Assembly: GCA_945860295.1 (NCBI GenBank)
Contig: CAMAQH010000002.1
Span: forward strand, 164,394-228,393
DNA from: Prosthecobacter debontii
GTDB lineage: Bacteria > Verrucomicrobiota > Verrucomicrobiia > Verrucomicrobiales > Verrucomicrobiaceae
Reading direction: 5' to 3'
DNA length: 64,000 bases
A program made the translations under genes and the position numbers. The notes below the pieces were generated by a model. It was not told where the DNA came from. It searched no databases and saw only the letters and a list, made by a program, of their open reading frames with translations. Of the stretch, positions 16,010 through 43,093 are shown in pieces (position 1 is the first letter of the stretch; each line of letters starts with the position of its first letter).

Positions 16010-16107
16010 GTGTGCATGAACTAGTGGTACTTCACCCTTACAGAAAGCAGATTTTATGGCTAACAAAACGTGCCTGCGTGACGAATGCGTCACTGGAAAA
16101 ATGCCTC

Positions 16108-18370: not shown

Positions 18371-18388
18371 GTGACGCAGTCGTCACCA
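18371..18388 (+). promoter_or_regulatory. Candidate Pho-box-like site upstream of phoB
   Basis: GTGACGCAGTCGTCACCA, with half-sites 11 bp apart. A weaker copy CTGAC-N6-GTCAC lies at 18339-18354. Confidence 0.55.
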
Positions 18389-19246: not shown

Positions 19247-20464
19247 ATGAATATTACTCTCAGCATCGCAATCATCGCCCTCATCGTGTGGGCATGGTGG
19301 CGCGAGAAAATGTGGCGTAGCAGCGTTGAAAAAGTCACCCACGCGGCTGGGCTCAAGACCTTCGAGGCCGACAAGCTCGCTGCGCTTTTTGTTGGCCTTA
19401 AAGAGGCCAATCATGCGCTCGTCAAAGAAGAATACCTGCGCCGCTTGTTTGAGGCTTTACTCAACGAGATCCGCCAAGGTGTGGCTATCGTCGATGATGA
19501 GATGCGCATCAAATTCTCTAATCGCACGCTGGCGCACCTTTTTCAGAAGACTCGCATCCATCGCGGTCGCATGCTCATTGAGGAGCTTCAGGACCATCAA
19601 ATCACCGATGTCGTCCAAAGTGCGCTCAAAGAGCAACGCCGCATCGTGCGCGAGATCGAGCTTTCCAACAGTACTAGCCTGACGAGTCGCTATTACCTCA
19701 TCGAAGCCGCGCCCCTGCCTGCCAAGGCGGAAAGCGGTGCGTGGCTCATGGTGCATGACATCACCGAGCAAACGATGGCCGAGCAGATCCGCAAAGATTT
19801 CGTCGCCAATGCCTCCCACGAACTGCGCACTCCGCTGACACTCATCAATGGTTATGTTGAAACCCTGCAAAGCGGTGTGCTCAAGGACGCGGCCACCATC
19901 CAGCGCTGCTACGACGTCATGGAAAAACATGGCAAGCGCATCGTCCGCATCATTGAGGACATGCTCACCATCTCGAGGCTTGAGAATGGTAACTCGGCGC
20001 TAAACATCGAGCCCTTCACCGCCCGTGCCTGCATGCAGGACTCACTGGACCAGCTCGCCCCCATGCTTCAACAGCGTGATGCACGCATCGATCTCGACTT
20101 GCCGGCCGATGGCGGGCACATGCGCGGAGATCGTTTTTATTGGGATCAGGTCTTCAGCAATCTCATTGAAAACTCGCTCAAAGAGAACCCCAACCCAGGT
20201 CTCGTCATCAAGATCACGGGCAAGTGGTTCGCCGATCACATTCTACTCACCGTCAGTGACAACGGCATCGGCATCGCCACTCACGACCTGCCCTTTGTTT
20301 TCAAACGCTTCTACCGTGGTCACAAACACCACAGTCCGCAGATCAAAGGCACCGGCCTGGGCCTCAGCATCGTCCGCCGCGCCATTGAAGCCCACGGCGG
20401 AACCATCGGCCTCACTAGCACTCCCGGAGTTGAGACCACGTTCACGATGCGAGTGCCCGTTTAG
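19247..20464 (+). CDS. phoR: PhoR-like sensor histidine kinase
   Basis: N-terminal TM, PAS-like region, H-box DFVANASHELRTPLT, and N/G boxes (NLIENS, VSDNGIGI, GTGLGL). Confidence 0.8.
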   Translation: MNITLSIAIIALIVWAWWREKMWRSSVEKVTHAAGLKTFEADKLAALFVGLKEANHALVKEEYLRRLFEALLNEIRQGVAIVDDEMRIKFSNRTLAHLFQKTRIHRGRMLIEELQDHQITDVVQSALKEQRRIVREIELSNSTSLTSRYYLIEAAPLPAKAESGAWLMVHDITEQTMAEQIRKDFVANASHELRTPLTLINGYVETLQSGVLKDAATIQRCYDVMEKHGKRIVRIIEDMLTISRLENGNSALNIEPFTARACMQDSLDQLAPMLQQRDARIDLDLPADGGHMRGDRFYWDQVFSNLIENSLKENPNPGLVIKITGKWFADHILLTVSDNGIGIATHDLPFVFKRFYRGHKHHSPQIKGTGLGLSIVRRAIEAHGGTIGLTSTPGVETTFTMRVPV

Positions 20465-20501: not shown

Positions 20502-23500
20502 CTAGAGCTGCGCGGTGACTTTCTTTTTCTTTGTCTCATCGTCATCACTGCCACCACCATAACCTAGGATTTCGACGCTGATGACAGAGAGAGGCTTGGA
20601 TTCCCCTGATTTCTGCTGCTCACCTCCCTGAGGTTTAGCAGCAGCCGTATTGGTGGCAGCACCCGAGGAGGCCGCTGCTGCAAGGCCACCCATGCTTGGG
20701 GATGAAACAGACGGGGCGGATGGTGCGCCACTAGTACTTCCAGAGGCCTGAATATTGCCGGCATTGAGAACGACGCTAGCTGCGATGTTAAGATTCCCTG
20801 TAGCGCGAATACCAGCGTCACCCGCATCCACAGCACCGATCGGGGCAATCAGGTCGATATTGGAAGGCTTGAGAATACCGACTGTAGCCAGAGCCCCGAT
20901 ACCGCCCCCAGTCGCCAAGCCAGCTAGGTCAGTGGTGACATTGGCGCTTTGTGGATCAATCAACACACGCGTTGGAGGAGCCGATTGAACCGTTTTTGCG
21001 GATGAGCCCGCAGCAATGTCACCGGAGGATGACCAGATGCTGATATCGCCGCCTTTGAGGGTGAAGATTCGGGAAATCCCCAGATCAACGCTGTCATCAG
21101 TGAAGATGGAAATGTTTCCACCCGATTCAGTAACAATCCCTGGAGGTGCCAGTTGCTGACCAATCACCGTCGGTGAAAGGGCAAGTCCACCGTCTGTAGA
21201 GAGCAGCGTGATGTCACCACCACTGCGGGTGCGGATGTCACGGGCTTGGGTAAAGATGCCACCCGCAGACTTGGTAGGCAAGAGCGCTTTGACGGCATTG
21301 AAACCAGCTTCATAGGAGCGGAAATTGACACTGTCTGGGTTATTGTAATCACGCCCAGCATCCCTCAAGACAAGGTTGTAAACTGAGAGTGTCAGCTGCT
21401 TCTGTTGTTCCAGAGTCAGGAGCGGATCTTGGAGGTTAAGTCGTTTATTACCAGGCGTGATATCAAGCTCAATTGTGAGATCGTCCCGTAGAACCGTGAT
21501 CTTCGTGCTCTCGCCGACTTTCATTCCATAAGACAAGTAGCTGTCATCGTAATTTCCGTTCACCTCTTTGCCTGCGATTTTCAAAATGGTATCACCTGGC
21601 TGAATACCGGCCAATTGAGCAGCTCCACCAGAATTGACGGAACTGACTTGAATACCCTCAGCTTCAGTCTTCGAAGGATCCTGCGTCAAACCTAGAATGC
21701 CAACAGCCTCAGCGAGATAGCGCTCACCTCCTGGAACAGAGATAACCTGTGTGATGAATTGATTAAAGTTCGCTGCGCTGTCGCTCAGACCCACAGCAGC
21801 ATTGCCCATGCCTGCGGCAACGAAGATGTCGGAGCCTTCAAAAGGCAGATACGGATTACGGCCGTTGCCGATGCTGGTGATGCCCACGCCAGTCCCATCT
21901 GGATTGTTGGAACCGGTGCCGAGATCGATGTTACGTCCTGCTAGCACTTGGAGAGTACCAGGACCACTGATTTGAATATCCCCCGCCAACGGGTCTTCAC
22001 CCAAGCCAACAACATTTCCAAGGCTCCGCGAATTGACACGCTGTGGCGTATTCGCATTGTAGGCGATGAGGTCGCGCCCAGCGGAAACAAGAGAAAGATC
22101 ACTGGCGCGGTTGTTCTGCAAATACAGCGAGACATCTGAAACATCGAGACCGCCGATGACTCGAGCCGATTTGGCTGAAAAGACTGTCAGTCCATTGATG
22201 GATCCGCTGTTGGCATAAATATAGACCGGAGAAGTGTCGTCGGCATGCAGAAGGCCAGCTGCGTGGAGTGCCTGCTTGGCTTGAAGGGCTGCTTTTGATC
22301 CCGTTGTGGACCCAGTTTCTAGGAAAAGACTGTCAATTCCCGCCAGGAAATTGTCACGCGTGGCATTGGCCGAGGTCGATGTTCTTGATGGCATCAGATT
22401 CTGGTAGGCAAAGGGTGTGTTCAAACCTGGTATTGCGTCTGGATTGGCATCCGACAAATTGATCCGACCTGCGCCCCAAACCGTTTGCCTGACACCGTTA
22501 AGCGTCGTCGATCCATTAGCATTCAAGCCACTGATAGCGCCAGACACGAATAATTCTAAAGCACCTTGCGAAGAGGGTGACAAATTTAAACTTCCTATCA
22601 CACTTAAATCACCTGCGAAGGCCGTCACTCGCAGCGCACCTGGAAGCAAACTGGCGGAGGCAGTGAAAGGTCGCACACTGCTTTCGACCAGCTTCAACCA
22701 AGGTTGATAGAAAGAGGAGCTGGCACCACCATTCGCACCTGTACTGGCTCCGAGCAGTTGGTGATTTTGGTACCAAGCTTGGATAATTGGCACTGATGTG
22801 CCAACCGTTCCTGGGGAAGGAAGCGTGATGCTCGACCGCAAGGTCACGTCTCCGGCAAGGGAGGTAACATTGACACTACTATCTGCAGCATAAGTGGAGA
22901 AGTAAGTCTTGTACCAATAACTATTGCTGTAGCCTTGGGGTAACAAAGAGACATTGGCCACAGGACCTAAAAGCACATCACCTCGTGCATTGATATTGAA
23001 GCTACTTTTACCGGCAAATAGAGTTGTCGGCATCCAAGTTTGCTCTGCCAACAGACTTGGAGTTGTGAATGAACTAATATAATTGAGAGAGGCTGAGCGT
23101 GTGCTGTTGGTGCGGATGGAATCCCCCGCCGCAAGGGTGCCTGTGCCGCGCTCCACATAATAAACACCAGCATCAATGTTGCGGCCCGATCGCACGATCA
23201 AATCACCACCGCCAAGCTCGATGAGATTGTTCGCCTTCGGCGCGATGGCAGTGCCAAGACTGTCCTTGCCCTGCATCCGCGCATTGGTCGGCACCACGGC
23301 ATCGACATTGCTGATATCCCGACCAGCAATCAAGGTCACATTACCACCGCCCAAAGCTCCGACACTCTGGAAGAAATTGCTGAAGTCCACCCACCAACTG
23401 GTGGATGCAATGTCTGTGCTCAACGTTGTATGATAACGTGATCGGGCAAAGAAACCCGAAACAGGATCAACGGCACCACGACGATATAGCCAATTGGTCG

Positions 23501-26500
23501 GCAATTGCCGTCTGGACTCAGCAACCAATTGATTAGCTATGTTACGCGTCAATTGAGTGACATCTCCCTGGGCATTGATGGTGACATTGCCACCTGCCAT
23601 TGAGTATTGGGCTGGGTAACGTGGAGACTGCTGGTTTGCCCCAAGACTTCCAGCAGCTGAGGTTAGGGTGCTCATATCAGGACGCGGCACATCAAACGTG
23701 CCTCCCAACATTGCATTCTCCACAGCAGTCCCTGCGGTATAGATGGAGGCGAACACATTTAGAAACTGCACGTCCCTACCTGAGGCTATGTCGATGTTAC
23801 CAGACCCGGTTCGGATGACCTGGAAACGCCCCGTGGTGGCGGTGGGATTGACGACCAGAGCAGTGGTCGCGGTCGCCCCAGGAATCGTGGCAATGGCGGC
23901 CCCTGCATTGCGACCGATCTGAAGCGAGCCTTTGTCCGTCGCCAGCGCCGTCTGGGACTGTACCTGATGGAAATCCACGGCGTTAAAGTCCGAACCTGCC
24001 GCAAGCCGGTAGGACCAGGATTGCAGATTGGAGGGCAAGGATGCGTTGAAGGCTAGCAGCGCAGAGTTATAGGCACCGGTGGTGAAGCCATCGTTAAGAC
24101 TGTTAAAGAAGACCATATTGCCTGCCGCACGCATGGTGAGGATACCCGGCACGCTCTTGGGACCAAATCTGGCCGTAGCAAGATTCCAGTCACCAGCGGC
24201 AATGGTGGAGGTGTTCGTTCCCAGGGTCAGATCACCGGCGCGGTTGATGACTTCCGCTCCAGGCACAAGGAAGAACTGAGAGCGCAGACCATTGTTCGAG
24301 GCGAGGAGACGGTCGGTGATGGTGTTGGTGTTGCCAGTGAAGGTGGTGGCGTTTGAGGTGATGCTGGTCAGTGCCGCTGCATTGAGCGTGCCGCTTGTCG
24401 GAGTAAAAATCTTGTAGCCTTCAGCCGTGATCAGCGAGGCACCGGTAATCTGTGCGTTGATCGCGTTCATTTGCAGCTCATCGGCGGCGGCATTCTGCGG
24501 CGCGCGCAGATTCAGAGTGCCGGTGTTCAGGCCCCAAGCAGCACTGCCCGCGAAAGCGATGTCACCGTCACCAGACAAGGTGACGCTTATCGCGCCGATG
24601 AGGCTGGTGGGTGTGTTCGCCGCCAGATTGATCGTGCTGCCATTGGTCAGAGTGACAATACCAGCCTGGGTGGCCGTGATCGTGTCGTAACCGTTGAGAT
24701 TGGCAGGAACATTGATCGCGGTATTGGCGACGGCATTCAGCGTGCTGCCAGCGATGTTGGTCGCCACGGAAAGGTCGATTTGTGAGCCTGTTTGCAGATC
24801 AAGCAAGGCACTGGTGCTCAAAATGCCGTCACGCTGCGAGCCAGCCATGAGCGAGATGGAGCCACCCTTACCCGCCCGGTCAAATTTTTGCGCCGCTGCT
24901 GTGATGCTTGCCGTGCTGGTGAGGGTGACGCTTTCAGCGGCCTGCAAGGTCACGCTGCCACCGGTGACACCTGAGGCATTGATCAAGCCGGTCACCGTGA
25001 TGCCGCCACGGTCCGCAGAGAGATCGAAGACGTTGGCCGTGGTGGTGCCGTCCACGAGCACATCACCATTGAGCACACGAATGCTGCGTGAGCCATTCAA
25101 TCCGGCGTTGTTGAGGGTGGCACTGAGTGCTCCCAGTATCGGCAGATTACCAGCAGTGAGGACGAAGGAGCCAGCTTGTCCGCCGGTGCCTCCGGTGCCG
25201 CTCAGCGTGCCGCCCAAATTGAGCGTGCCAGTGGTGGTCGTGACGGCGAGTGTTCCTGCATTCCCAGCCGCCGCATTGGCGGCGATGTTCACAAAGCTGC
25301 CTGCAAGCAAGTTCACCGAGCCGCCAGAAGAAATCAGGTCGATGCGGCCACCGTCGGTGTACTTGATCTGATCAAAGAAAGTCTGTGCGGTTCCGCCGAC
25401 ATTGAGTTTGCCAGACACATCGAGATTTCCCGAGGTCGTTGCTAGCGTGAGCTTGCCGCTGGGCAGCACGATGTCGCTGCCGACGCTCATGGATGAAGCT
25501 GACAAACTCAGAGTGGCACCGAGTCCGCCGATGATCGGAGTGCCCGATGCAGCGGCTAGCGTCATGCTCCCGCCTGCACTGATGGCTTGTGCGGAGAAGG
25601 CATCGCCTGCGATGACGGGCGTCGTGGCGTTGAATGCTCCCTGGACGATGAGGCTGCCCGCACCCTGACCGAGGATGCCTTTGGAGGCGGTGACATTGAC
25701 GTTCGCAAATTGGTCGATCCTCAGCGTGTTCGCGCCGAGGCGTAGTGTGTCTGCCTGCAAAGCCAGGGTGCCGTTCATGCCCGTGACAGCCCCGGGAACA
25801 GTGCCTGAGGCAAAGTTGTCGAGCAGCAGGTTCTGAGCGGCGAGCGTCACGGTGCCGCCGCCGTTATTGAAGCCACGGAGTTCACCAGCACGCAGCGAAA
25901 GGGCGGTCGTCGTCAATGCTGATCCGATCTGGCCGGTGCCATAGAAGTCGATGGATGAATAGCTAAGCAAGGCCAGCGATTTGGTATTCTGGATACTCTG
26001 CAAGGCGGTGCCTGTCAGGACGAGTCCTGGGTTTGCCTCAAGCGCCCCCGGATTGGTCAACTGCAGACTGATGCGACTGCTGTTGATGTTTAGTGTCTGC
26101 CCGGCCAAGACTGCCGCAGGGTCGATATTCATGACACTTGTGGAGTCCAAGGTCAGGCTGGTGCCCGTGAGGTTCACGCCAGCGCCGATCGTCAAAGCAG
26201 GTCCAGCGGCGGTCGTCACGCCAGAGCGCAGCATTTGGGCACTGGCATCAGCAGACACGCGCAGCAGAGCGCCGTTCCCGCTAACTGAGAGCGTGTCCGC
26301 GGCAGATGCCAGCGTGCCAGTCTGGGTGATGGTGGCACCGGCATTGAGCGTGATATTGCCCGTCGCCGCGAGGATGAGTTCCGGCATGGCGAGCGGTGAC
26401 ACGGCGGAATTGGCCAAAGTGATATTAGTGGCACTCGTGGTGAGAAGTGTCCCTGCAGTGGTCGTGTTGCGCTGGCCGCCGATTAGGAGGCTGGAAGAAC

Positions 26501-29500
26501 CAAAGGCACTGAGCTGCCCGGCATCAAGCACGAGCACGCCAGAAGCGGCAGTCGTTCCGGTTGAAGCGATGAGAATGTCCGACGGGCTGCTGATGTCGAT
26601 GGCGGCACCACGTCCAATTTGCTCGATTTTAGTGACTCCATCCTTAGTGACCTCGATACTATAGCCACTGCCTCTGACCTGACCGAGTAATGTCATTTGA
26701 TTCACGGCCTGGAGCAGCAAGCGTCCAGCATCGACTGGCACAAGAGGTGCGGCCAGGTTCAGCGCAGCAGCGCGCTGCTTGAGGAAAGTGTTGGCCGAGT
26801 AATCTTCATAGTTCACGCGCTTGTCCACGACCGATCCAGGCGCCACCTCGAAGCTAGAGTAGAGCCCTGGGTTTTGCGCATTTGGATTGAGGGAGTTAAA
26901 CCGATATCCAGAGACTAGCGAAGCACCACCGGGTATGACCACTGAGCCTAATGGCTCGCCAGTTTTAGGTGTGACGAGAAACGCGCCACTGAGCAAAGCA
27001 TAACGAGCTGGCAACAACGTATAATTACCACTCTGTAAACCACTGCCTCCATTGAGATAAATGCGGTCGCCTGCATGCAAGGTGCTGTTTCGATAACCTG
27101 ACTGTGAACTAGCCAGGTTCAACGTACTGTTGGTCTCATTGAAACGTCCAAAGGGCGCATAATCCGCCGTATAATTCGGCAAGATGGCAAAGCTGCCTTC
27201 ACTCTCAAGAATATCCAACGTGCCTCCGGTGCCCTTCAGCCAGCGGAAGGCATACAAGTCACCGCCACCACGCAGATCAACCACTGAATTAGCTTCCGAA
27301 TTGATGCTCAGTGCTGAAGTATTCACTGCTTTTACAGCTAAACCACCACCCGAGATATCGACACCTTGGGGATCAATCCAGTTTAAACCATCGCTGCTGA
27401 ATCCATAAGGTATCACAATGCCAAGTCCCGTGATCGGATCGATCTGAGACACAGAGGTGCGGCTACCAGTGAGCATGTTTAAATTCGCCGTCGTTGGCAA
27501 AGAAACACCTCCTTGAATGCCCGCTCCAGAGAGTAGATCCAGGGGACTAGCACCTCGGCCATCCCAGCCAAGATTGATGATCCCTGCTGGAGCAACAAGA
27601 GTGCCGCCTTGATTGATCGTATGGGCATAGACATTCAGCGTGCCCCCAGCAGATAGCGGCAGGCCGCGCACACCCGAAGACTCAAAGGTAATCGAACCAC
27701 GCTGCTGACCTGAACCATTCGTATAATCATAGGCCGCTATGGTAAACGTTGAAGCGGTCGGCGTGTAAATTTGACCGGCACGCATGATGATGTCTCCAGC
27801 AATATTCAAACTACCACTGCCGCGAATGTCGCCGTTATTTGCCACGAACTCTGCGCTTCCAGTATTTTGCAATGACAGGAAGCCGATATCAATGGTTCCT
27901 GCGTTGACATTCAAACTTCCTGCGCCGTGCGCTGGACTAACAAAAAATGGACTGCCTTGGGTGAAGGCATAAATCTCGTCCTGCTGAGACTGCATTGGCA
28001 CGCGAAAAGCCTGACCTAAGCTCACGTAAGTAGCATTCAAACTCACTGCCGCATCTGAAGTGAAAATGCCACCCGTAGCCACATGCAGACTTGCCGCAGC
28101 TGACAATGTCACAGGACCTGAGAACTGCACGTTCCCACGGAGCGTCAGTGAATCGAATCCCCCATTCGTGAAACTGTTCGCCTTGAAATAACCCTGAGAG
28201 ATTACCGCAGCCCCACCTGAATCACGCACTACTCGTCCTATGGCATTGCCGCCCGCTGAATAAATGGGCGCTGGGATTGAGAGCGTATTTTGAGTAACCC
28301 ATAGATCGATGTCGTTCGGTGAACTGCCAATGCCAGGTAAATAAAAGCGTCCCGAGGATACCTCCAGGGTTCCACCAGCTGCGTTGCTTCCGCCCCGCTC
28401 AGCACTGAGCAAAGCATCGACAAAGAGCATTTGACCACCTTTGAGGGTAATGGTTCCGCCTTGGCTGTCTAATTTTACCGGCGTGCTAACAGCCCCATTA
28501 TATATGGGCGTCGTTGAGCCACTCGTTACGGGAATCGAAAAAGCTCCATTGAGGAACCCAGCTTCTCCTGGGGTTAAATCTAGGGTACCACTGGTTCCTG
28601 ATGCATCCAAGACAGCACCTATCTCGGCTACGATATTCCCACTCACATTGATCGTTCCACCTGCTAAAACGCTACCTTTCCGCAGACCAAACGCATTGGG
28701 CAATAGAAGGGTCTTACCAGCCGTCGAAAGAAGACTGGTCGGCGCAAGATTGACCGTTACAAAAGCATTCATTGGCACGTCATCAAACGAAGCAAACCTA
28801 TTTGCACCTGAAATTGAAATGGCACCGCCAGGCGAAATCACGGTTCCTGCCACTGCCACGGTCTCTCCTTCAAAATTGACGGCACCTAAAGCATCCGTTT
28901 TGATAACGGCATCTTTCTCCATGATGATCTCTCCACGCACTACTAGCTTAGAAGCAAACTGATCAAGCACGCCTGTAGCTTTAAAGTTCAATGAGACTGT
29001 ATTACGCAAGCCTTCCTGTCGGGTGAAAACTTTTAGCAAGGAGCTCTGATCCTGAGGCGTCGGATTCAATTCCCAACCTTTCACAATAGGAGTGATTTGT
29101 GTGCCTGCCGAAATCAAGATCGCAGGGGAAAATTCACCCAATACAAGCGTGGGCCGACCAAGACCAGCCATCGTAAACGAGCTGAACCCCCCCTGATTAA
29201 AGAAGTCGGGTGTAAGCAGCAGGGTTTCTGCATTCGTTGCAGTTCCTCCAACCTGAATCGCCGGAGCTTGGATCGTAAGCGCTCCACCTTGAGCTCCCGA
29301 AAATCCACGCAGCTCAGCACCCAACGTTAAACCACCGCCAAGGACCCCTAGCACATTCACATCCTGACCAGATTTGAGACTCATCGTTCCTGCATCTCCA
29401 TAGGTCACTACAGGCGAGTTTTTGAGCCGGGCTCCGCCGGAAACATCCAGAATCCCACCTGCAGCAAGGGTCACTCCCATCGCGTTGATGGAGATATTAC

Positions 29501-32285: not shown

Positions 32286-32296
32286 AAGAATGAGAA

Positions 32297-33211
32297 TCAG
32301 GGTTTAACTGCGGCCCCCGAAGTGGGGCGTAAAACCAGCAGCTTTGAGACAGCCAGTTCGTTGATCACCACGGGTGTTTCCTGCAACTTTTTCGATAGAT
32401 AGTCCTGCGTGCCTGTGCGGCCCCGCTCACCGCGCAGCGTTCTCACCAGATCCGCGCGCACTTGGTCCAGCGTTGGGACAAAGGGCTGGCGCGCATCGAG
32501 CACTTTCACGAAATGCCAGCCGTCCTCAAGTCGCAGAGCCTCAGAAACATCATTGAATTTCAGCTCCGGCAGTTTGGCGAAAATCTCAGGCTGAATCTGT
32601 AACTGCGTGAGCCAGCCGATCACACCACCACGCGCAGCGCTCTCACGCTCCTCACTGTGCTCACGGGCGACGGCGGCGAAGTCGCTCTCCGGCGCACGCA
32701 CGAGTTCGCGGACCTTATCAAGCCGTGTGCGTGCGGCTGTGGCAGCCTGCTTGTCCTGGCCTTTGGGATCAGAGATGAAAATCTGCGCCAGATGAAACGA
32801 TTGCGGCATCGCCAAAGTCGCACGGCGGGATTCATAGGCGCTCTTCAGTTCGGCTTCGTTCGGGTAGCTCTCGGGCGGCTGGGCCACTGCCCTCAAATAG
32901 GAATCTGTGATGGCGGTATCACGGGCCTGACGAATGCGGTCGATAACTTCTGGCCGCTCGTCCCATTTCTTTTCCAGCGCCTCACGCAGCACCAGACGCT
33001 GAATCATCAGTGAGCGCACCAGCTTGGTCAAAGCAGCGGGATCACGCATCAAGGCAGCGCGTTCTTCCTCGGTCAGTTGATTGAGCGTCGGCAGCACCAC
33101 ATCTGCCTTCACGTCCTCATCCCCAAGACGTCCGAGCACCACATCCGCAGGCTCTTGAGCCTGCAACATCAGGCAGAGCAACCCAAGGAAAGAGCAGAGA
33201 AACGGCTTCAT
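32297..33211 (-). CDS. PpiC-type (rotamase) peptidyl-prolyl isomerase/periplasmic chaperone
   Basis: FHLAQIFI, FAAVAREHSEE...GGVIGW and GWHFVKV motifs; signal peptide. Confidence 0.88.
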   Translation of the reverse strand: MKPFLCSFLGLLCLMLQAQEPADVVLGRLGDEDVKADVVLPTLNQLTEEERAALMRDPAALTKLVRSLMIQRLVLREALEKKWDERPEVIDRIRQARDTAITDSYLRAVAQPPESYPNEAELKSAYESRRATLAMPQSFHLAQIFISDPKGQDKQAATAARTRLDKVRELVRAPESDFAAVAREHSEERESAARGGVIGWLTQLQIQPEIFAKLPELKFNDVSEALRLEDGWHFVKVLDARQPFVPTLDQVRADLVRTLRGERGRTGTQDYLSKKLQETPVVINELAVSKLLVLRPTSGAAVKP

Positions 33212-33909
33212 CGGCTGGGTTTGGCTGGCGCAGGAGTCGCTGCAGGAGTCTGTGCGGCGGCTGTCTTCTTCGGATCTTCCGGCTGGATCTTCTGATCGGT
33301 GAGCTTGTCTTTGTAGTCCTGCACTAGCCCTTCCAGCTTCACGCGCGTCAGCCTTGTGAAAGGCTCGCGCGCGGCGATCGCGGTGCCGAGACCGAAGCTT
33401 TCATAGCGAGTCAGCACTTCACTGCCGGTCTTGTACAATTCATCGTTCTTGCGGTAGTAGTCTGCCACCCGGCGCTCCAGAACGATCACCTTGTCCGCAA
33501 GCTTCATGCGCTCGGCTTCTTTGCCTTTGGCCACTTCTTCCATCTTCAAGTAGCCGACCTTCCACTTGGCAAGTGATTCATCAAGCTTCGCGATTTCGGC
33601 GGTCTGTTCACTGCCCTTTTCCTTGAGATCAGTGATGGTCTTTTCGGCAGCAGTACGGTCACTGGCGCTCTGCTTGACGAGTGCTCCGAGCTTCTTGGTG
33701 AGATCAGCATTCTTCGACTCCAGGTCGATTTTTTCTGCCTGCAAAGCAGCGCGGTCCGCCTCAGTTTTCTGCTGCAAGATCATCGTCGTGCGCAGGGAAT
33801 CACGCATGCGCTTGAGGACGGCCATGGCGGGATCCTCCGCCTCTTCGGCGTTTGATTTGATGGCGCTGAAGGCCAGTGCGGCCATGAGGAAACAGATGGA
33901 TTTTTTCAT
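33208..33909 (-). CDS. Exported coiled-coil protein
   Basis: Signal peptide followed by a long heptad-rich helix. 4-nt overlap with the PPIase gene. Confidence 0.7.
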   Translation of the reverse strand: MKKSICFLMAALAFSAIKSNAEEAEDPAMAVLKRMRDSLRTTMILQQKTEADRAALQAEKIDLESKNADLTKKLGALVKQSASDRTAAEKTITDLKEKGSEQTAEIAKLDESLAKWKVGYLKMEEVAKGKEAERMKLADKVIVLERRVADYYRKNDELYKTGSEVLTRYESFGLGTAIAAREPFTRLTRVKLEGLVQDYKDKLTDQKIQPEDPKKTAAAQTPAATPAPAKPSR

Positions 33910-33911
33910 GA

Positions 33912-35819
33912 TTAAAATTTGGCGGTGAAGTCGATGAGGAAGACATCCGTTTTCATTTGGGGGCCGGCGATTTGGGTGGCGCTCATTACGGCGAGCCTGA
34001 ACCAGGTGCGCTTAGAGAGGGCCATAGCGGCGTTGATCGTGTAGCCCTCCATATTGGAGCCACCAGCGCCGAAGACGGAGTCGGTGAAGCCATCGACGAC
34101 AGCGTCTGACTCAACATGGCGATAGCCAAGGCCCACGGCCCAATCACCACGTTTTTCAAAAGCAGGGATCGGCTTGCCGAAATTCACACCGGCGTAATAG
34201 GCGGTGTCACCGCCATCAAATGCTCCATCTCCACCAGCGCGGTTGTTGACGGCAAAGGTGCTGATCTGATCGCTGTCAAAAGCGATGTTCTTGACGAACT
34301 CACCCAGCAGGGAAATCTGCATCGGCTCGTAGTGGTTGAAGTCCATTCTACCTGTCCAGTAGAGCTGACGAAACTCACTCGCCAAACCAAAGTACTGCCA
34401 CTGGTTGGTGGTGCCGAATCCATTAAGCGGACTCGAAGTGATGTTACGGATCGGACGGTAGGTATTGCCTTTCTGAGCAAACGATGGGCGACTGTTGTCG
34501 GTGCTGCCAGCATCGGTGGCGTTGAGCGGCACATAGGGATCGGAGAGCTGGCCTTCGATGTTCTTCCAGTCATAGTAGGCGATGCTGGATTTGACCTCGA
34601 TCTTGTCAGTAATTTTGAATTCCGTGCCAAACTGAGCGGCAAGGAGGTACTTATTATAGCTCTCGTACTTGGACGGGTTGTTAGGGGCGTAATTGAAATA
34701 GCTGGTGAACACCGGGAACGCACCTGCGGTGAAGAAGGTTTTAAATCCAGGCTGCCAAGGGCTGGTGATCTTGAAGGCAATGCCGTCGAGTCCGACATCT
34801 TCATCCCACATGATCTGGCTGTTAGTCATAAAGGGATTATCAAAGCGTCCCAGCAAAATAAGCAGATCAGCGTGTGGCGTCAGATGGCCCTCATATTTGA
34901 TGAAAGCGCGGTCCAGCCAGAGCTCGTATTTGGAAAAGTTACCGCCCTGGGCGGAACTGCCACTTGCTGTGCTACCGAGGGTTTGATTGGTGGAGACGGG
35001 CGAATTGTTGCCACCCGTGGCCATGCGGATGCCGGCAGTAAATCCATCTTCCATATCAATGTCAAAGCCGAGGCGCATGCGCAGGCGGTTACGCTCACGA
35101 TCCTGATCCACATTGAGCTGTGGAGGCTGAACAGGATTGCCGATGGAAACATCGTATGGCGATCCTGTGTTTATGCTGTTGAAGTTCGGGAAAGAACCCG
35201 TGTTATCGTTTCCAGCAGGGAACATGAACATGTCATGACGCATGCGGATGTCACCGTAGAGCTTGATACGGGAGGTCCACTCCTGGTGCTGGTTCGGTGC
35301 GGCCCAGCCTTCTGCACGCGCTTGAGCAAGCACGTCGTTACGCAGGTCCTCACGGATCTGGTCCTTCACGGTTTCTGGGATGTAGGTGACGCGGTATTCG
35401 TCTTCATCTGCTGGTGGCGGCGGCGGGGCAGCCTGCTCTAAAGCAACTTTCGTTTCTGCCAGCACCTGCGCCTGGCTTTGGGCGGTCTGAGCGTCCTGCT
35501 CAGCGAGGCGGATCAGATCCACGGCATCTGCCTGTGTCAGGGCTCCGCGCTGCACGAGGCGGTTGATCAGATTGATCGTCACATTTTGTGAAAGCGACGC
35601 CGTCGGCTGAGCACTGGAAACGGCGCTAGGATCAGGCAGCAGACTGCTCGGCGGTGGCGCTGCTTCTGTCGCTGCCGAAGCCGCCGCTGGCGAGCCTGCG
35701 GCAGGAGCGGCGGCGGCGAGCATGGGTAAAGGCAGCGGCTCGAGCAACTCAGGGACTTGCGCGTGAGTAAGACGGCTGAGAGCAGCCGCGCTGATGAGGA
35801 GCAGGAAAAATGAACGCAT
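33912..35819 (-). CDS. Putative porin (Porin_5-like outer-membrane beta-barrel) with N-terminal periplasmic extension
   Basis: Signal peptide; INLINRLVQRG segment; GDIRMRH..RLRMRLG; aromatic-rich strands; terminal Phe (FTAKF). Confidence 0.8.
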   Translation of the reverse strand: MRSFFLLLISAAALSRLTHAQVPELLEPLPLPMLAAAAPAAGSPAAASAATEAAPPPSSLLPDPSAVSSAQPTASLSQNVTINLINRLVQRGALTQADAVDLIRLAEQDAQTAQSQAQVLAETKVALEQAAPPPPPADEDEYRVTYIPETVKDQIREDLRNDVLAQARAEGWAAPNQHQEWTSRIKLYGDIRMRHDMFMFPAGNDNTGSFPNFNSINTGSPYDVSIGNPVQPPQLNVDQDRERNRLRMRLGFDIDMEDGFTAGIRMATGGNNSPVSTNQTLGSTASGSSAQGGNFSKYELWLDRAFIKYEGHLTPHADLLILLGRFDNPFMTNSQIMWDEDVGLDGIAFKITSPWQPGFKTFFTAGAFPVFTSYFNYAPNNPSKYESYNKYLLAAQFGTEFKITDKIEVKSSIAYYDWKNIEGQLSDPYVPLNATDAGSTDNSRPSFAQKGNTYRPIRNITSSPLNGFGTTNQWQYFGLASEFRQLYWTGRMDFNHYEPMQISLLGEFVKNIAFDSDQISTFAVNNRAGGDGAFDGGDTAYYAGVNFGKPIPAFEKRGDWAVGLGYRHVESDAVVDGFTDSVFGAGGSNMEGYTINAAMALSKRTWFRLAVMSATQIAGPQMKTDVFLIDFTAKF

Positions 35820-35846
35820 GGAATGGTAGGAGAAATTCAAAACAGA

Positions 35847-36545
35847 TCAGGGCTTGCGCAGGGTGAGGCGCATTTTAACTGGCATGGGCTTGGGTGGGTC
35901 AGGCGGCAGTTCGTTCAGGTCAAGGCCGACGACGGCCTCACTAATGGCCGCGTCCACTGCGGGATCGCCTATGCTGCCGTTGAGGGATGCTTTGGTGATG
36001 CGCCCTGTGGCGTCTAACCAGATTTGTATGATGACGCTGCCTTCAGCCGTTTTAGTGATGTTGTTCCGGCTCAGCGCTGCTTGGATTCGGCTCGACATCA
36101 CGCCTTGATACCTGCCCCAGGCTGACCCGGTTCCGCCACCACCGCCACCGATGCCGCGGCCACCGCCACCACCACCGCCAATGGATAAACCATCGCCAGG
36201 GCCATTACCGACGAGTGCGGTACCCAGGGGTTCGTCCTTTGGTGCATCAGGTTTGTTATCTGGCTTCTCCGGGGGTTCTTCCTCCGGCTGCTCCATCTTC
36301 TCTTCTTCTTCCGGCGGCGGCTCTTCTTTCTTCGGTGGCGGCGGCGGTGGTGGTGGAGGCGGTGGCATGATAGGCATCACCATGACCATTTCCATTTTCT
36401 TTTTAGGCTTGGTTTCTTTGGATGGTTTTGAGGTCATGGCAAAATAGCCACCCCCAGCCAGCACTAAGGCGCCAACGATGATCATCACGAGATTGCGCCG
36501 GAAAAATCCGGGTTCGTCTTCGTCGTCTAAATCGTTAGCACTCAT
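35847..36545 (-). CDS. TonB-like energy transducer
   Basis: Single TM, poly-Pro/Glu linker, Gly-rich spacer and a TonB C-terminal-like domain (IQIWLDATGRI). Confidence 0.8.
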   Translation of the reverse strand: MSANDLDDEDEPGFFRRNLVMIIVGALVLAGGGYFAMTSKPSKETKPKKKMEMVMVMPIMPPPPPPPPPPPKKEEPPPEEEEKMEQPEEEPPEKPDNKPDAPKDEPLGTALVGNGPGDGLSIGGGGGGGRGIGGGGGGTGSAWGRYQGVMSSRIQAALSRNNITKTAEGSVIIQIWLDATGRITKASLNGSIGDPAVDAAISEAVVGLDLNELPPDPPKPMPVKMRLTLRKP

Positions 36546-36559
36546 GAATCAAAAACTCG

Positions 36560-36961
36560 TTATTTTTTGGACTGCGTCGCCAAGCCAACATGGGTGACAC
36601 CCGCACGACCAACGGCATTCAAAGCATCCATGATGAGCTGGTAGTTGGCATTGCTGTCACCACGGATCACCACGGGCACGTCGGGAGTGGCAGCGACGAT
36701 AGCCTCCATTTTGGTGCCCAACTCTTCAATCGTCACAGCCGTGGCATTCAGCTTGATGTTACCTTGATCGTCGATCGTGACGGCCTGCATTTTCGGGCCT
36801 TCGATGGGTGTCGAGGTCGCAGCGCCGCCGCGCGGTAGCTTGACTTTAACTCCCTGCACACCCGCTGTGGTCATGATGATAAAGATCAACAGGAGCACGA
36901 GGTAGAGATCCACCATCGGCGTGACGTTGATGTCGTCGTAAGATTTGCTGTCAGCTTGCAT
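36560..36961 (-). CDS. exbD: ExbD/TolR biopolymer transport protein
   Basis: INVTPMVDLYLVLLLIFII with the conserved TM Asp; VIRGD..NYQ motif. Confidence 0.92.
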   Translation of the reverse strand: MQADSKSYDDINVTPMVDLYLVLLLIFIIMTTAGVQGVKVKLPRGGAATSTPIEGPKMQAVTIDDQGNIKLNATAVTIEELGTKMEAIVAATPDVPVVIRGDSNANYQLIMDALNAVGRAGVTHVGLATQSKK

Positions 36962-36967
36962 GGAGGT

Positions 36968-38803
36968 TTAAGATTCTTTGTAATGCTCAGCCATTTTGGC
37001 GATGAACTCGTCAATGAAGGTCTCCATGTCATTCACGGCATCTTTGATGCGAGTGCTGAGGTAGCTGTAGGCAAACAGCGCCGGAATGGCGACAGCGAGA
37101 CCAGCCACAGTAGCGAGCAGCGCACCGGCGATACCTGGGGCGATGGAGTTCACCTCAACCTCTCCTGATTTGGCGATAACGGCGAAGGTGATCATCACCC
37201 CGATAACAGTGCCCAAAAGACCAAGGTAAGGACCACCTGCAATGCCGATGGTCAAATACACCAGCATGCTGTTGAGTCTCTGCACTTCACGCATCAGTCC
37301 GCCGTGCAGGGTGGCTTTAATGGCTTGAATCGAGCGGCCGGATAGTCCTTTGGACGAGCTTGGCGCTTCCTTCTCACCATTTTTCACACGCTGTTCGATC
37401 TCTTCAGAACCCAGATGGTAAATGTGATACAGCGGTGAGTGCTTCATCAGCTTTTGCGCTTTTGCGCTGACCGTGCCGCCCATGGACTTAATGCTGTTGG
37501 CATCCGACGAATCCAGTGCCGTCAAATCCGAGGAGACCTTTTTCCAGCGTTCGAGGAATACCTTGTTCGCTTTCCCGATTTTGTTCAAATAGAAGAATTT
37601 TGCAATGGCAACCCCCCAACCGACGACGGCTAGGAGCGCGCAGAGAAAGATGACGACCCAGCCATCAATCGTCAGATCTTTGGAAATGCCCTGGATCAAT
37701 GAGAGATGCTTGGCCATCTCACTTTCTTCCTCGTGATCGGAAGCTTCATCAGAACCGACGACGAGGAGTTTGGCAGCCTCTGCACCTGTGCCTTGATTCA
37801 CTGCAGCAAGCTGGATGAAGCCGGCTGGTCGCGCGACTTTGGCGATCTGGAGTTCGTCGATCTCACCGGTGAAACCTGCCAGTGAAGCAGCGGCGGCTGA
37901 GGTATCTTTGTCGATCTCAATGATGCCTTTCAGGGCTGGCAGGGCAGCGGTCAGGGCTCCGTAGGACTTGCCGTCGAGATACACCGTGACATTGCCCGCC
38001 TCAGCCACAGCGGCCAGATGATGCCAGCCACCAGCGGCGATCGGAGCACCTGCCGTGCTGCGCTTGGTGTTGATCTCAACAAAAGGCACGCCGTTGTCGA
38101 GACCGAGGATGAAAGCATTCGCTCCTTCGCGGCGGCTAAGGATGACGGCATTTGCCTGCAAGGCGCTTGGCTTGATCCAAACCGAAACAGTGGCGGCTGC
38201 GCCGGCGGCCCAATCCAGGGCGGGGTTCGCCGCCACCTTGATCGCGCTCTGACCAAACAAACGCATACCGCCCGAGATAAGCGAGCTTGCAGCTGGCGGT
38301 GGCGCGCCTTCGGCATTCACCCCAGAGGCAGAGGAGTCAGCACCAGCCTTTGATGCATCAGCGAAGTGATAGACCAGCGTTGTATTTTCATCATACGTTT
38401 CCTTGGCGGCGGCAGCGCTTGCGGCTTCGGTCGTGTTGCCATAATACAGCCAAATGGAGGTGGCGGCGGCAGGCTTCAGATCTGGCACCTGAACCCAGAC
38501 ATAGGCTTCGTTGAGCAGGGAATCCCACTTCTCAACGTGGTGCTTGAGCAGAGTTTTATGATCATCAGCCGTGAAGCGCAGGTCACTGCCGTCCTCACGC
38601 CCTGACATGAAACTGAAGATGCCTTCATGCAGACGCACGAGGACGGCGGTGGTGCCGATGGGCGCGGTGATGGCGGTGCTCTTGGTGTCGATGTCGATCT
38701 TCTTGCGGATCGTCCATTTGGCATCGTGCCAATTTTTTTCCGCCGCTGAAAGGGAGCCGACGAGAGTCACGAAAGCGAAAGTGATGATGAACCTATTAAA
38801 CAT
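36968..38803 (-). CDS. exbB: ExbB/MotA/TolQ proton-channel subunit fused to DUF2341 and LamG-like domains
   Basis: N-terminal DGSDLRF..L.HHVEKW..WVQVP (DUF2341); WIKP..WHHLA..YLDG..IDEL (LamG); C-terminal PYLGLLGTVIG..GIAGALLATVAGL. Confidence 0.88.
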   Translation of the reverse strand: MFNRFIITFAFVTLVGSLSAAEKNWHDAKWTIRKKIDIDTKSTAITAPIGTTAVLVRLHEGIFSFMSGREDGSDLRFTADDHKTLLKHHVEKWDSLLNEAYVWVQVPDLKPAAATSIWLYYGNTTEAASAAAAKETYDENTTLVYHFADASKAGADSSASGVNAEGAPPPAASSLISGGMRLFGQSAIKVAANPALDWAAGAAATVSVWIKPSALQANAVILSRREGANAFILGLDNGVPFVEINTKRSTAGAPIAAGGWHHLAAVAEAGNVTVYLDGKSYGALTAALPALKGIIEIDKDTSAAAASLAGFTGEIDELQIAKVARPAGFIQLAAVNQGTGAEAAKLLVVGSDEASDHEEESEMAKHLSLIQGISKDLTIDGWVVIFLCALLAVVGWGVAIAKFFYLNKIGKANKVFLERWKKVSSDLTALDSSDANSIKSMGGTVSAKAQKLMKHSPLYHIYHLGSEEIEQRVKNGEKEAPSSSKGLSGRSIQAIKATLHGGLMREVQRLNSMLVYLTIGIAGGPYLGLLGTVIGVMITFAVIAKSGEVEVNSIAPGIAGALLATVAGLAVAIPALFAYSYLSTRIKDAVNDMETFIDEFIAKMAEHYKES

Positions 38804-38845
38804 GAGTGAAGCGTGGTTTAGGAGTGGTGAAAAAAGTCGGGGAGA

Positions 38846-40501
38846 TTAGAAATCGAACCAAAGGCGGAAGCGGGCATTGAACTCGTTGGCGATGGCGTTG
38901 GGCTGATCAATCAGCGGCAGGGCAAGGTCAACTGAACCATGCAGATGCTCATGCCAACGAATGCTTGTGCCGATACCGACACTCGCCAGATCAAAGTAGT
39001 TGGCCTGAGCTGGTAGCGTCTTGTTAACAAAAACTCTGCCTTGATCATAGAAGGCATAAAAACGCCATTCATCAGGACTATCCTTGGCCTCTGCGCCCAG
39101 CAGCGTTGGACTGCGAAGTTCGGCTGTGCCAATTATGCCGCTGTCGCCCAATTGCGTCGCCTCAAGGTAACCACGCACAGAACTGAGTCCGCCGATGGAG
39201 ACCTGCTCTGTGTTAATCAACGAAGAGCCGCTCAGCTGACTTTGGATTTTAGCAAATGCCTTGAAGCCGCCTGGTAAATCATGCGTGTGGGATATATCTC
39301 CCCGAAGATGAAAGAATCCATCATCCGCCTGATACCGCCTTATGCCAAGGCCTTCAGCCGTGTCATTGCTGCCAAGGCCACGAAGGTGAAACGTCGTCGT
39401 CAGGTTCAAGTCGGTGTAGCTATTTTTGCGCACCTGACCGGCACTATAACTCAGCGTCATTGGGAAATAAGTGACCGGAGATGAATTCACCGTGCCCGCC
39501 GCGATCAGATCCTGTTCAAAATTCTTATAGTCCATGCCGAAACTTAACGAATGGAAAAAACCGTCTTCAGATGGCAACTGCTTCAGCAAACGGAAGCCTA
39601 AAACCTCTCCACGGCCTGCCACTGCACCACCACCCAGGGTGGAGACGTTGCTGTCCTGCTTGGTTCCCGTGAGCATGAGGCTGAGTCCGTCCTGACCGGG
39701 CACGGGCAGCATGTAGTAGCCGGAAAAAACACGGGCATCATCTGCCCGCTCAGGTGCCACCTGATAGCTCAGCCCGAACGTGTGGCCCAACTGCCAAAGG
39801 TTGCCGTAGCTGACGTTGGCATTGAGGCGGAAAGGCGTCGTATTGGCGTTGTAGCGGTTGTTGAGTTCGATGCTCCCGTGAAACGGTGATTTATCTTCGA
39901 CGATGAGATCGATGTCCACCGTTCCAGGCACCACGCCAGGTCGCAACTCCGGAGTGACTTTCCGGTCTGGCGATTGATTGAGCGCCACCAGATCCTTTTG
40001 GACCTGATTAAAATCTGGAACCACGCCTTCCTGCATCGAAGGCGCTTTTTTGAGGATGTCACTCGGCAGATACCACTTGGCACCCTTCACCCTCAACCTG
40101 CCCACAGGCGCTTCAACGGCTTTCAAATAGATCACTCCACCGCGCGCATCTTGCTGTGGCACCTCGATATAAACCGTCTGATAGCCACGGTCTTTGTACG
40201 CTTTTTCGAGCGCCTGCCGCGCCTGTTCGACATCTTGCTCACCGCGCCTCGGCCCCATGAATGGATACACAGCTTTTTCAAACTCACGCGCAGTTAAAAT
40301 CTTACCACCGCGCAGACGGTACTCGCGGATGTAAATATTGCCTAGCGCTGGCTCATCAGCCTTGGCAGCCTGAGCTGTTTCCGCTGTTGCTGGTTCGGCC
40401 CGGCCCTCGATCGACGGCACAGCCAGCAGGCAGCAAAAACAAGTCCAGAAACGGACCTGCGCGGCGCGCGCAAGAATGAGAGTGGGCAGTTTGGGATGCA
40501 T
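38846..40501 (-). CDS. TpsB (ShlB/FhaC/HecB) outer-membrane translocator
   Basis: POTRA-like N-terminus, loop-6 motif GGLSSVRGY, terminal Phe; SD AAGGA upstream. Confidence 0.9.
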   Translation of the reverse strand: MHPKLPTLILARAAQVRFWTCFCCLLAVPSIEGRAEPATAETAQAAKADEPALGNIYIREYRLRGGKILTAREFEKAVYPFMGPRRGEQDVEQARQALEKAYKDRGYQTVYIEVPQQDARGGVIYLKAVEAPVGRLRVKGAKWYLPSDILKKAPSMQEGVVPDFNQVQKDLVALNQSPDRKVTPELRPGVVPGTVDIDLIVEDKSPFHGSIELNNRYNANTTPFRLNANVSYGNLWQLGHTFGLSYQVAPERADDARVFSGYYMLPVPGQDGLSLMLTGTKQDSNVSTLGGGAVAGRGEVLGFRLLKQLPSEDGFFHSLSFGMDYKNFEQDLIAAGTVNSSPVTYFPMTLSYSAGQVRKNSYTDLNLTTTFHLRGLGSNDTAEGLGIRRYQADDGFFHLRGDISHTHDLPGGFKAFAKIQSQLSGSSLINTEQVSIGGLSSVRGYLEATQLGDSGIIGTAELRSPTLLGAEAKDSPDEWRFYAFYDQGRVFVNKTLPAQANYFDLASVGIGTSIRWHEHLHGSVDLALPLIDQPNAIANEFNARFRLWFDF

Positions 40502-40562: not shown

Positions 40563-40580
40563 TGGTGACGATTGTGTCAC
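40563..40580 (-). promoter_or_regulatory. Candidate Pho-box-like site upstream of the tpsB operon
   Basis: Minus strand GTGACACAATCGTCACCA, 16/18 identical to the site upstream of phoB. A weaker copy lies at 40626-40641. Confidence 0.55.
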
Positions 40581-43049: not shown

Positions 43050-43093
43050 GTAAAAAAGAATTTAAAGTTGGATCAGTAGAATTGAATTTAAAA

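Follow-up and report, generated by a model that had tools for sequence, protein, structure and literature searches.

A two-partner secretion operon of Prosthecobacter debontii with its own Tol/Ton-type motor and a predicted plug-less porin is a verrucomicrobial copy of the PdtAB-type gene set

We analysed a 64,000-nucleotide stretch of Prosthecobacter debontii DNA (the window; positions 164,394 to 228,393 of contig CAMAQH010000002.1, assembly GCA_945860295.1) in which genes for a two-partner secretion (TPS) pair, a motor, an outer-membrane protein of the Porin_5 family, a coiled-coil protein and a peptidyl-prolyl isomerase (PPIase) form one operon. Our data indicate that this cassette is the verrucomicrobial copy of the known PdtAB-type gene set with local variations, namely a tpsA gene that comes last, a PDZ insertion in its product and phoB/phoR-like neighbours. 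We consider it likely that the cassette is an integrated machine of the PdtAB type that is probably linked to phosphate starvation. As to how it works, we lean toward a horizontally mobile TPS and motor machine in which the proton motive force is coupled to a surface fibre through the C-terminus of the exoprotein TpsA. The operon and the parts of TpsA, in window positions, are as follows.

40501-20502, minus strand: eight-gene operon, all genes co-oriented (open reading frame list)
38846-40501, minus strand: TpsB transporter, 551 residues (Pfam POTRA_2 52 bits, ShlB 76 bits)
36968-38803, minus strand: motor A subunit, 611 residues (Pfam DUF2341, Laminin_G_3 and MotA_ExbB)
36560-36961, minus strand: motor B subunit ExbD/TolR, 133 residues (Pfam ExbD 84.7 bits)
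35847-36545, minus strand: TonB/TolA-like spanning protein, 232 residues (TonB_2 26.7 bits)
33912-35819, minus strand (longest open reading frame 33912-35840): Porin_5 outer-membrane protein, 635 residues from the called start (Pfam 610 bits)
33208-33909, minus strand: secreted coiled-coil protein, 233 residues (signal peptide; no Pfam family)
32297-33211, minus strand: periplasmic parvulin-type (PpiC) PPIase or chaperone, 304 residues (Pfam rotamase families; signal peptide)
20502-32285, minus strand: TpsA giant exoprotein, 3927 residues (open reading frame; Pfam TPS, PDZ and DUF3739)
31227-31823, minus strand: TPS secretion domain of TpsA, residues 155-353 (PF05860 59.4 bits)
21459-21695, minus strand: PDZ domain in TpsA, residues 3531-3609 (PDZ_2, PDZ_6, PDZ)
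20700-21437, minus strand: C-terminal beta-rich module of TpsA including DUF3739, residues ~3617-3862 (DUF3739 100.7 bits)
within the 20700-21437 module, minus strand: DUF3739 of TpsA, residues 3745-3855 (Pfam)
20586-20750, minus strand: low-complexity tether of TpsA, residues 3846-3900, 55 residues (alignment of C-termini)
20553-20594, minus strand: terminal strand motif PLSVISVEILGYGG of TpsA, residues 3898-3911, 16 residues before the C-terminus

The gene products follow the order TpsB, ExbB/TolQ-type subunit, ExbD/TolR, TonB/TolA-like protein, Porin_5, coiled-coil protein, parvulin PPIase and TpsA, and the intergenic gaps along the operon are, 5' to 3', 42, 6, 14, 6, 2, -4 and 11 nt. These coordinates agree with the original prediction, made by a reader of the sequence alone, of eight co-oriented genes separated by -4 to 42 nt with a 3927-residue exoprotein last, and gene callers recover the identical eight-gene string on near-identical public contigs. 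TpsA has the signal peptide (read from the sequence) and TPS domain that type Vb secretion requires, and the TpsB encoded in its operon has the POTRA and ShlB-type barrel required of the partner. The genome as a whole contains one TPS domain and one DUF3739, both in TpsA, together with one Porin_5 and one DUF2341. The gene arrangement of the cassette is far beyond chance.

We found that 79 of the 80 verrucomicrobial Porin_5 loci, a set drawn from species genomes and fetched with a 12-sequence Porin_5 alignment, have their genes in the order TpsB-ExbB-ExbD-TonB-Porin_5-coiled-coil-(PPIase)-TpsA; the sole exception, locus L073, has Porin_5 without other cassette genes within 10 kb. The nearest Porin_5 relatives come from Prosthecobacter or Verrucomicrobiaceae. 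A profile search also retrieved alphaproteobacterial porins at 40-47% identity, and the same gene string surrounds the porin in Rhodopseudomonas, Oleomonas, Blastochloris and Aliidongia. Each of the seven accessory proteins has a counterpart of 31-50% identity in Rhodopseudomonas and in Oleomonas, with the genes lying in the same order. We then asked how the parts are distributed by searching 401 evenly sampled Pseudomonadota genomes for Porin_5, DUF3739 and DUF2341, the last being a domain of the motor A subunit. Full-length Porin_5, DUF3739 and DUF2341 occur in an identical set of 12 genomes; DUF2341 has two further weak matches, and the seven genomes with partial Porin_5-like matches have neither DUF3739 nor DUF2341. 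All 12 full-length Porin_5 loci lie amid TpsB, ExbB/ExbD and TpsA genes, with an order that varies in three, and in one genome (G381) the motor genes are on a separate contig. Among 301 Verrucomicrobiota genomes we found full-length Porin_5 in 9, all of one class. The frequency of the cassette is approximately 3% of species in both samples. Save for L073, neither full-length Porin_5 nor DUF3739 was found outside the cassette in the two sampled phyla. Since related genomes are not independent, we attach no formal statistic to these co-occurrence counts.

Because synteny is strict across two phyla and the phyletic distribution of the parts is identical, these comparisons indicate that motor, porin and exoprotein are one machine whose parts work together. 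The proposal that the locus encodes a multi-component envelope machine rather than a simple two-partner system is thus borne out by the strict synteny and by the shared distribution of Porin_5, DUF3739 and DUF2341. Given the high identity between phyla and the patchy distribution, our data fit a horizontal spread of the whole cassette.

The PdtAB-type gene set has been listed since Llamas et al. 2009, who noted its conservation in other Proteobacteria (PMC2729926). In Pseudomonas aeruginosa PAO1 it spans PA0690-PA0699 and consists of pdtA, phdA, pdtB, exbB2, exbD2, tonB4, PA0696 (a putative porin), PA0697, PA0698 (YbjN) and PA0699 (a PpiC PPIase) (PMC2729926, PMC7035377). The two clusters share TpsB, ExbB, ExbD, TonB, porin, a small secreted protein and PPIase in the same order together with a giant TpsA, and they share a link to phosphate limitation. 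The Pseudomonas cluster, too, is listed without a TonB-dependent receptor gene, VreA being a receptor-like protein. They differ in that the window belongs to Verrucomicrobiota, tpsA is last and not first, and a PDZ domain is inserted in TpsA; furthermore, phdA, the YbjN gene and the VreAIR signalling genes are missing from the window, and a phoB/phoR-like pair lies alongside instead. The Rhodopseudomonas cluster, which is homologous to that of P. aeruginosa according to PMC2729926, encodes proteins 31-49% identical to those of the window. The likeness to the P. aeruginosa PdtAB set that was proposed at the outset holds, as the protein set is the same and orthologues are present in Rhodopseudomonas, Oleomonas and 12 further genomes. 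A 2020 paper on the P. aeruginosa cluster calls its TonB system 'still uncharacterized' (PMC7035377), and we found no functional literature after 2020 on pdtA, tonB4, exbB2, PA0696, DUF2341 or Porin_5.

We next considered what kind of motor the cassette encodes. The A subunit has a signal-like N-terminus, a periplasmic part made of DUF2341 and LamG and then a three-helix MotA/ExbB/TolQ channel domain (MotA_ExbB, 93 bits), and its full length is conserved among relatives. Its best NCBIfam model is TolQ (115 bits versus 57-61 bits for the ExbB models), and a PDB search gave the same ranking (TolQ 59.7 bits versus ExbB 43.9 bits). The B subunit scores 94 bits with the NCBIfam TolR model versus 62 bits with ExbD and retains the membrane-embedded aspartate, Asp18, within its transmembrane helix (PMVDL). 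The spanning protein is composed of an N-terminal membrane helix, a poly-Pro and Glu/Lys-rich segment, a Gly-rich linker and a C-terminal TonB_2 domain; the NCBIfam model tolA_full reaches 36.6 bits versus 32.1 bits for tonB_Cterm, and TonB_C, at 16.9 bits, is below its cut-off. Because the TolQ, TolR and TolA models outscore those of ExbB, ExbD and TonB, profile scores make 'Tol/Ton-type' the safer name for the motor. No TolB or Pal domain was found among the eight gene products with Pfam and NCBIfam. DUF2341 on motors of this type is described in a 2025 survey as an appendage without an assigned role (PMC12505986).

A Pfam profile search of the genome found no TonB_dep_Rec barrel on contig C2, which contains the window, and Plug and TonB_dep_Rec genes are absent from all seven of the related loci that carry Pfam annotation. 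The earlier statement that no plug-and-barrel receptor accompanies the operon stands on both counts. The genome has five TonB_dep_Rec matches, on contigs C1, C4, C14 and C29, and C29 holds two of these receptor genes together with a canonical exbB and tonB pair. The cassette motor is additional to the housekeeping Ton system.

TpsB is 44-49% identical to its alphaproteobacterial orthologues. We looked for a TonB box at its N-terminus and rejected one, because a comparison of 58 orthologues shows no conservation in the first 55 residues. After the signal peptide only approximately 20 non-conserved residues precede POTRA1 (40337-40501, minus strand). The plug helix and linker of FhaC are longer than this stretch, and the plug helix of TpsB may be missing.

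The Porin_5 protein begins with a signal peptide and approximately 55 disordered Ala, Pro and Ser residues, followed by the motif NVTINLINRLVQRG, a predicted stalk of helices and a predicted barrel of 16 strands that has no plug. Conservation among 81 sequences starts abruptly at NVTINLINRLVQRG, after the disordered stretch. We modelled the protein with AlphaFold2 from a 54-sequence alignment (mean predicted local distance difference test score, pLDDT, 74; this model and that of the TpsA C-terminus described below are of medium confidence), and the model has helices at residues 80-90, 96-128 and 149-169, then the 16-strand barrel and no plug; the NVTINLINRLVQRG motif is helical in it. Foldseek against the PDB ranked OmpM1 first, followed by MOMP, AlgE, PorB, DcaP, OprB, OprO and OprP, and there is no TonB-dependent transporter among the 50 matches listed. 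The model thus predicts that a helical stalk in the periplasm carries a plug-less porin of 16 strands. OmpM1 and DcaP have an N-terminal periplasmic coiled-coil stalk ahead of a 16-strand barrel, and the Porin_5 model places its helical stalk likewise. DcaP of Acinetobacter baumannii (6eus) and OmpM1 of Veillonella parvula (8bys/8byt), which are among the best structural matches, share only 12-14% identity with Porin_5, and Porin_5 has no SLH domain. We know of no counterpart in stalked porins of the OmpM1/DcaP type for the N-terminal motif and the disordered segment of Porin_5. We also weighed whether Porin_5 might be a cryptic TonB-dependent transporter and rejected this on its modelled 16 strands, helical stalk and missing plug and on the fold search. 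The earlier idea was that the motor may energise the Porin_5-like barrel; because the model has neither plug nor transporter fold and resembles stalked 16-strand porins, the motor is unlikely to do so in the manner of a TonB-dependent transporter. Shorter Porin_5-like proteins (approximately 380-620 residues, at most approximately 110 bits; for example at loci L124 and L125) occur in cassette-less genomes, including those of other classes of the phylum, and such cassette-free proteins may be free-standing ancestors of the family.

TpsA is rich in Gly, Ala, Ser and Thr, contains no Cys beyond residue 250 and shows no recent internal repeats at the DNA or protein level by self-BLAST. Both of its ends are conserved, its middle poorly. 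The N-terminal TPS domain matches the N-terminal domains of EtpA and HxuA in the PDB. Near the other end, the closest solved structures to the PDZ domain are RseP-type and DegP/DegQ PDZ domains. The PDZ domain is missing from TpsA of Rhodopseudomonas (L083), Blastochloris (L227) and another Verrucomicrobiaceae genome (L229), and most metagenomic TpsA relatives align only from residue 146 of a 450-residue C-terminal query, past the PDZ domain. These alignments indicate that the TpsA PDZ domain is a lineage-specific insertion.

The TpsA C-terminus is 33-44% identical to proteobacterial C-termini. We aligned the C-terminus of the window's TpsA with 18 from other genome loci (nearly all Pseudomonadota) and then compared 57 metagenomic homologues. 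All have one layout, a beta-rich module, a tether and a terminal strand, and the motifs of the module include SR-I-x-T-x-x-GGD and DLIAP-x-G-x-VDAG-DAGIR. An AlphaFold2 model of the 450-residue C-terminal fragment is confident at positions 140-385, with the tether and strand disordered. No solved structural relative of the DUF3739 module was found; the best Foldseek match in the PDB has E = 1.3, and the matches are weak ones to beta-helices or beta-rolls. The tether that follows has a length of 47-57 residues (median 55) in 57 measurable homologues, and its sequence is not conserved. It is followed by a near-invariant strand with the consensus PS-I-I-[TS]-V-E-V-[LI]-G-[YF]-G, which lies 2-66 residues from the end across homologues. 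A strict pattern for the core, [ILV]-I-[TS]-V-E-V-[LI]-G-[YF], matches 58 of 75 homologous C-termini, which come from Verrucomicrobiota, Pseudomonadota and metagenomes, and some of the others show variants of it. A short, alternating-hydrophobic strand with one acidic residue, on a floppy tether of fixed length, is the form that TonB boxes and the end of TolB that binds TolA also take. Because the TpsA strand has this TonB-box-like form and because motor, porin and DUF3739 are strictly inherited together, the strand is the best candidate partner of the TonB-like arm, and we tentatively suggest that it might serve the arm as a handle for beta-augmentation.

The remaining two products are periplasmic. 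The 233-residue secreted protein has weak matches to coiled-coil models only (NCBIfam, Pfam); its C-terminal 60 or so residues are conserved, its gene was found in 80 of 82 loci, and it is 32-35% identical to the product of the same-position alphaproteobacterial gene. The PPIase gene is detected by tblastn in 32 of the 82 loci and is present in all four alphaproteobacterial loci with Pfam annotation. The parvulin chaperone usually travels with the cassette.

We hypothesized that the operon responds to phosphate, given the genes and candidate operators listed here.

40565-40580, minus strand: candidate operator in common with the phoB-like gene, a 16-bp palindrome (GTGACACAATCGTCAC) at 64 nt upstream of tpsB
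18371-18388, plus strand: operator box upstream of the phoB-like gene
18436-19137, plus strand: phoB-like response regulator gene, convergent with tpsA
19247-20464, plus strand: phoR-like kinase gene, convergent with tpsA
14873-16093, minus strand: GT4 glycosyltransferase (Pfam), with a palindrome at 16078-16093 at the gene start
13986-14876, minus strand: calcineurin-like (plcP-like) phosphoesterase (Pfam)
13270-13962, minus strand: PhoU (Pfam)

Among NCBIfam models the regulator matches PhoB best, whereas for the kinase the PnpS model gives 273.7 bits and the PhoR model 229.3 bits. We found that the 17-bp sequence GTGACNNNNTCGTCACC has only two copies in the 4.68-Mb genome, where 0.18 would be expected, one upstream of the phoB-like gene and one upstream of tpsB. 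The looser form GTGAC-N6-GTCAC has three copies within 25 kb, before the GT4, phoB-like and tpsB genes, and 12 sites genome-wide; of 56 related loci, 10 have a palindrome of this type upstream of tpsB. As a general Pho box the palindrome was rejected, as only the phoB-like, tpsB and GT4 sites of the 12 are clearly promoter-proximal to phosphate-related genes. The distribution of sites makes it a candidate for a shared local operator rather than a proven Pho box. In P. aeruginosa, phosphate limitation induces pdtAB-exbB2D2-tonB4-PA0696-0699 via PhoB and sigma-VreI (PMC2729926, PMC7035377, PMC5422565), and in P. fluorescens SBW25 phosphate depletion leads to secretion of an fhaB-like exoprotein and the neighbouring DING phosphate-binding protein (PMC5082522). 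Taken in this context, phosphate starvation probably switches the operon on. The GT4, phosphoesterase and PhoU string is headed by an open reading frame of 572 codons (16108-17826, minus strand) whose product has no Pfam match even at E = 5.

In the mechanism toward which we lean, TpsA would leave the cell via TpsB by the usual route, with the parvulin chaperoning the long unfolded chain. The C-terminal module, tether and strand would remain accessible from the periplasm, whether kept there like the FhaB prodomain or passed through the lumen of Porin_5. There the C-terminal domain of the TonB-like arm could grip the IITVEVLGY-type strand by beta-augmentation, and the proton motive force would be coupled mechanically to the fibre, which could be held, put under tension, retracted or released at a given time. 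The motor would not be opening a TonB-dependent receptor, and the coiled-coil protein and the stalk of the porin might form a periplasmic scaffold. A bolder form of this proposal, about which we are rather doubtful, is energised type V secretion, the first of its kind, in which the tether would pass through or under the plug-less porin and the motor, by way of the gripped strand, would pull on, hold or let go of a micrometre-scale fibre from within the cell. Such a process would be colicin-style porin threading in reverse, under phosphate starvation, and we regard that equation as no less speculative.

Two known systems bear on the retention and threading of the TpsA terminus. Bordetella FhaB, secreted by FhaC, is reportedly a giant TpsA with a conserved C-terminal prodomain that is kept in the periplasm and controls maturation or release (Noel et al. 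2012, cited in PMC5422565). It differs from the window's TpsA in that it lacks DUF3739 and has neither a motor nor a porin dedicated to it, and its prodomain is removed by proteases. Colicins thread a disordered segment through a porin and so present a TolB-binding or TonB-box epitope. The cassette resembles the Tol-Pal system and its colicins in the Tol-model scores of the motor and in combining a disordered tether, a short strand epitope and a plain porin. It differs in that TolB and Pal are absent, the direction is inside-out and the epitope is C-terminal, and the resemblance is only a lead.

Several observations weigh against coupling of the motor to TpsA and against the phosphate link. 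The terminal strand may instead bind a POTRA domain, the PPIase or another chaperone, the lineage-specific PDZ domain or a periplasmic protease (compare the C-terminus of FhaB); the PDZ domain may be either an alternative or an additional partner. The TonB_2 match of the arm is weak, at 26.7 bits versus a cut-off of 22. Both regulators score under the PhoB and PhoR equivalog cut-offs (for the regulator, 234.8 bits versus 296). No copy of the palindrome was found upstream of the one pstS-like gene in the genome (contig C12), and because of this we do not name it a Pho box. That the PAO1 proteins are orthologues is deduced from gene lists in the literature and by way of Rhodopseudomonas rather than from a direct alignment. 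Lastly, P. aeruginosa single mutants affected in tpsA, tpsB, the tonB homologue and PA0696 show wild-type virulence in zebrafish (PMC2729926), and there is so far no phenotype that links the motor to PdtA.

Before the alternatives are weighed, the surroundings of the cassette need to be described. Just upstream of tpsB (41499-43888, minus strand) lie genes for a PEP-CTERM protein of 264 residues and a secreted protein of 516 residues, a pair found in the same position in approximately 20 of 82 related loci. Between the 516-residue protein's gene and tpsB is a 253-codon open reading frame (40648-41409, minus strand) whose product belongs to no Pfam family and which was found in 5 of the 82 loci. 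The motifs GSTAF and GRD..SGTR of the 516-residue family recall PstS. We tried a PstS-type phosphate-binding protein as its identity, which the sequence did not confirm: it has no Pfam match even at E = 5 and no PDB match by sequence or by a 17-sequence profile, and an hhalign comparison with the Oleomonas PBP_like_2 protein covers only the 15-residue GR..SGT motif (E = 0.3).

The alphaproteobacterial loci have additional genes. Past the PPIase, Rhodopseudomonas (L083:14001-16546) has genes for YbjN, a lytic transglycosylase (SLT) and a trypsin-like protease, and in Aliidongia (L228:13510-16154) the genes found there encode YbjN, a Methyltransf_21 protein and a trypsin-like protease. The two loci also include genes for VreA-like STN proteins, extracytoplasmic function (ECF) sigma factors, FecR and a second TonB. 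In Oleomonas cavernae (L084:6867-8812) the motor A subunit is split into 558 and 90 residues, a frameshift or sequencing error inside exbB, and stops are present in the tpsA C-terminus.

Among the alternatives to mechanical coupling, the one that survives best is import in the manner of HxuABC: the fibre would capture a phosphorus-containing ligand or strip a carrier, and the ligand would enter via Porin_5 while the motor gates or pulls the stalk. Import of a captured ligand was among the original proposals. We consider it unlikely, and allow it a place because of the phosphate-starvation context, which is found here and in Pseudomonas (PMC7035377, PMC5082522). A system that joins TPS to TonB-dependent uptake has a precedent in Haemophilus influenzae HxuA/HxuB/HxuC, with a TPS pair, a component that depends on TonB energy and a surface exoprotein that acts in nutrient acquisition (PMC5422565). 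HxuC, however, is a classical plug-and-barrel transporter that uses the cell's general TonB, whereas the window has a plug-less porin and its own motor. A PBP_like_2 (PstS-family) gene adjoins the cassette in Oleomonas, the secreted-protein pair upstream of tpsB is conserved in approximately 20 loci, and the structural matches of the Porin_5 model include OprP and OprO, porins for phosphate and polyphosphate; both rank lower than general porins in that fold search, however. Import also has to contend with the Porin_5 barrel itself, which is plug-less, has no TonB-dependent transporter among its 50 listed structural matches and is of the 16-strand kind that conducts passively. Its N-terminal motif is predicted to be helical and sits between the disordered segment and the stalk, unlike a TonB box. 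Furthermore, in Pfam and PDB searches 3100 residues of TpsA yielded neither a binding nor a catalytic domain.

Distinctly unlikely, in our judgement, is that the motor energises export or assembly, with the TonB-like arm working alongside the coiled-coil protein and the PPIase on TpsB or unfolded TpsA in the periplasm, so as to drive the passage of the 3927-residue chain or control its quality; in this scheme, held with equally little confidence, Porin_5 would be a structural partner or envelope tether of the OmpM/DcaP kind. The layout of the genes, read as co-transcription with tpsB ahead of tpsA, is in keeping with such a role, as are the periplasmic chaperone gene within the set and the short, non-conserved stretch of approximately 20 residues ahead of POTRA1 in mature TpsB. 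The lytic transglycosylase, trypsin-like protease and YbjN genes of alphaproteobacterial cassettes are usual for trans-envelope assemblies. Classical TPS, however, is known to work without an energy source (PMC5422565), TpsB has no conserved N-terminal box, and export would leave the strict co-inheritance of a dedicated porin and a conserved TpsA C-terminus unexplained. That the Ton genes are merely co-regulated neighbours that energise receptors encoded elsewhere is very unlikely, because none of the three marker parts occurs without the others in the sampled genomes: at least five TonB-dependent receptor genes do lie on other contigs and spare TonB systems are common in bacteria, but a canonical exbB and tonB pair sits beside two of those receptor genes on C29, the DUF2341 motor subunit shares its 12 of 401 genomes with Porin_5 and DUF3739 (two weak extras aside), and the gene order holds in two phyla.

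By standard teaching two-partner secretion needs no energy, and this widespread cassette ties it to a private proton motor. The link between motor and TPS has gone without explanation since the P. aeruginosa cluster was listed in 2009. At the locus described here the cassette is again found among phosphate-starvation genes, intact across phyla and with three hallmark domains that are never separated in the sampled genomes. The conserved tether and strand turn the role of the motor into a defined question, that of whether the TonB-like domain binds the C-terminal peptide of TpsA. If the motor is indeed coupled to the fibre, this would be a new way of applying force to a bacterial surface structure and a new role for motors of the Tol/Ton type.

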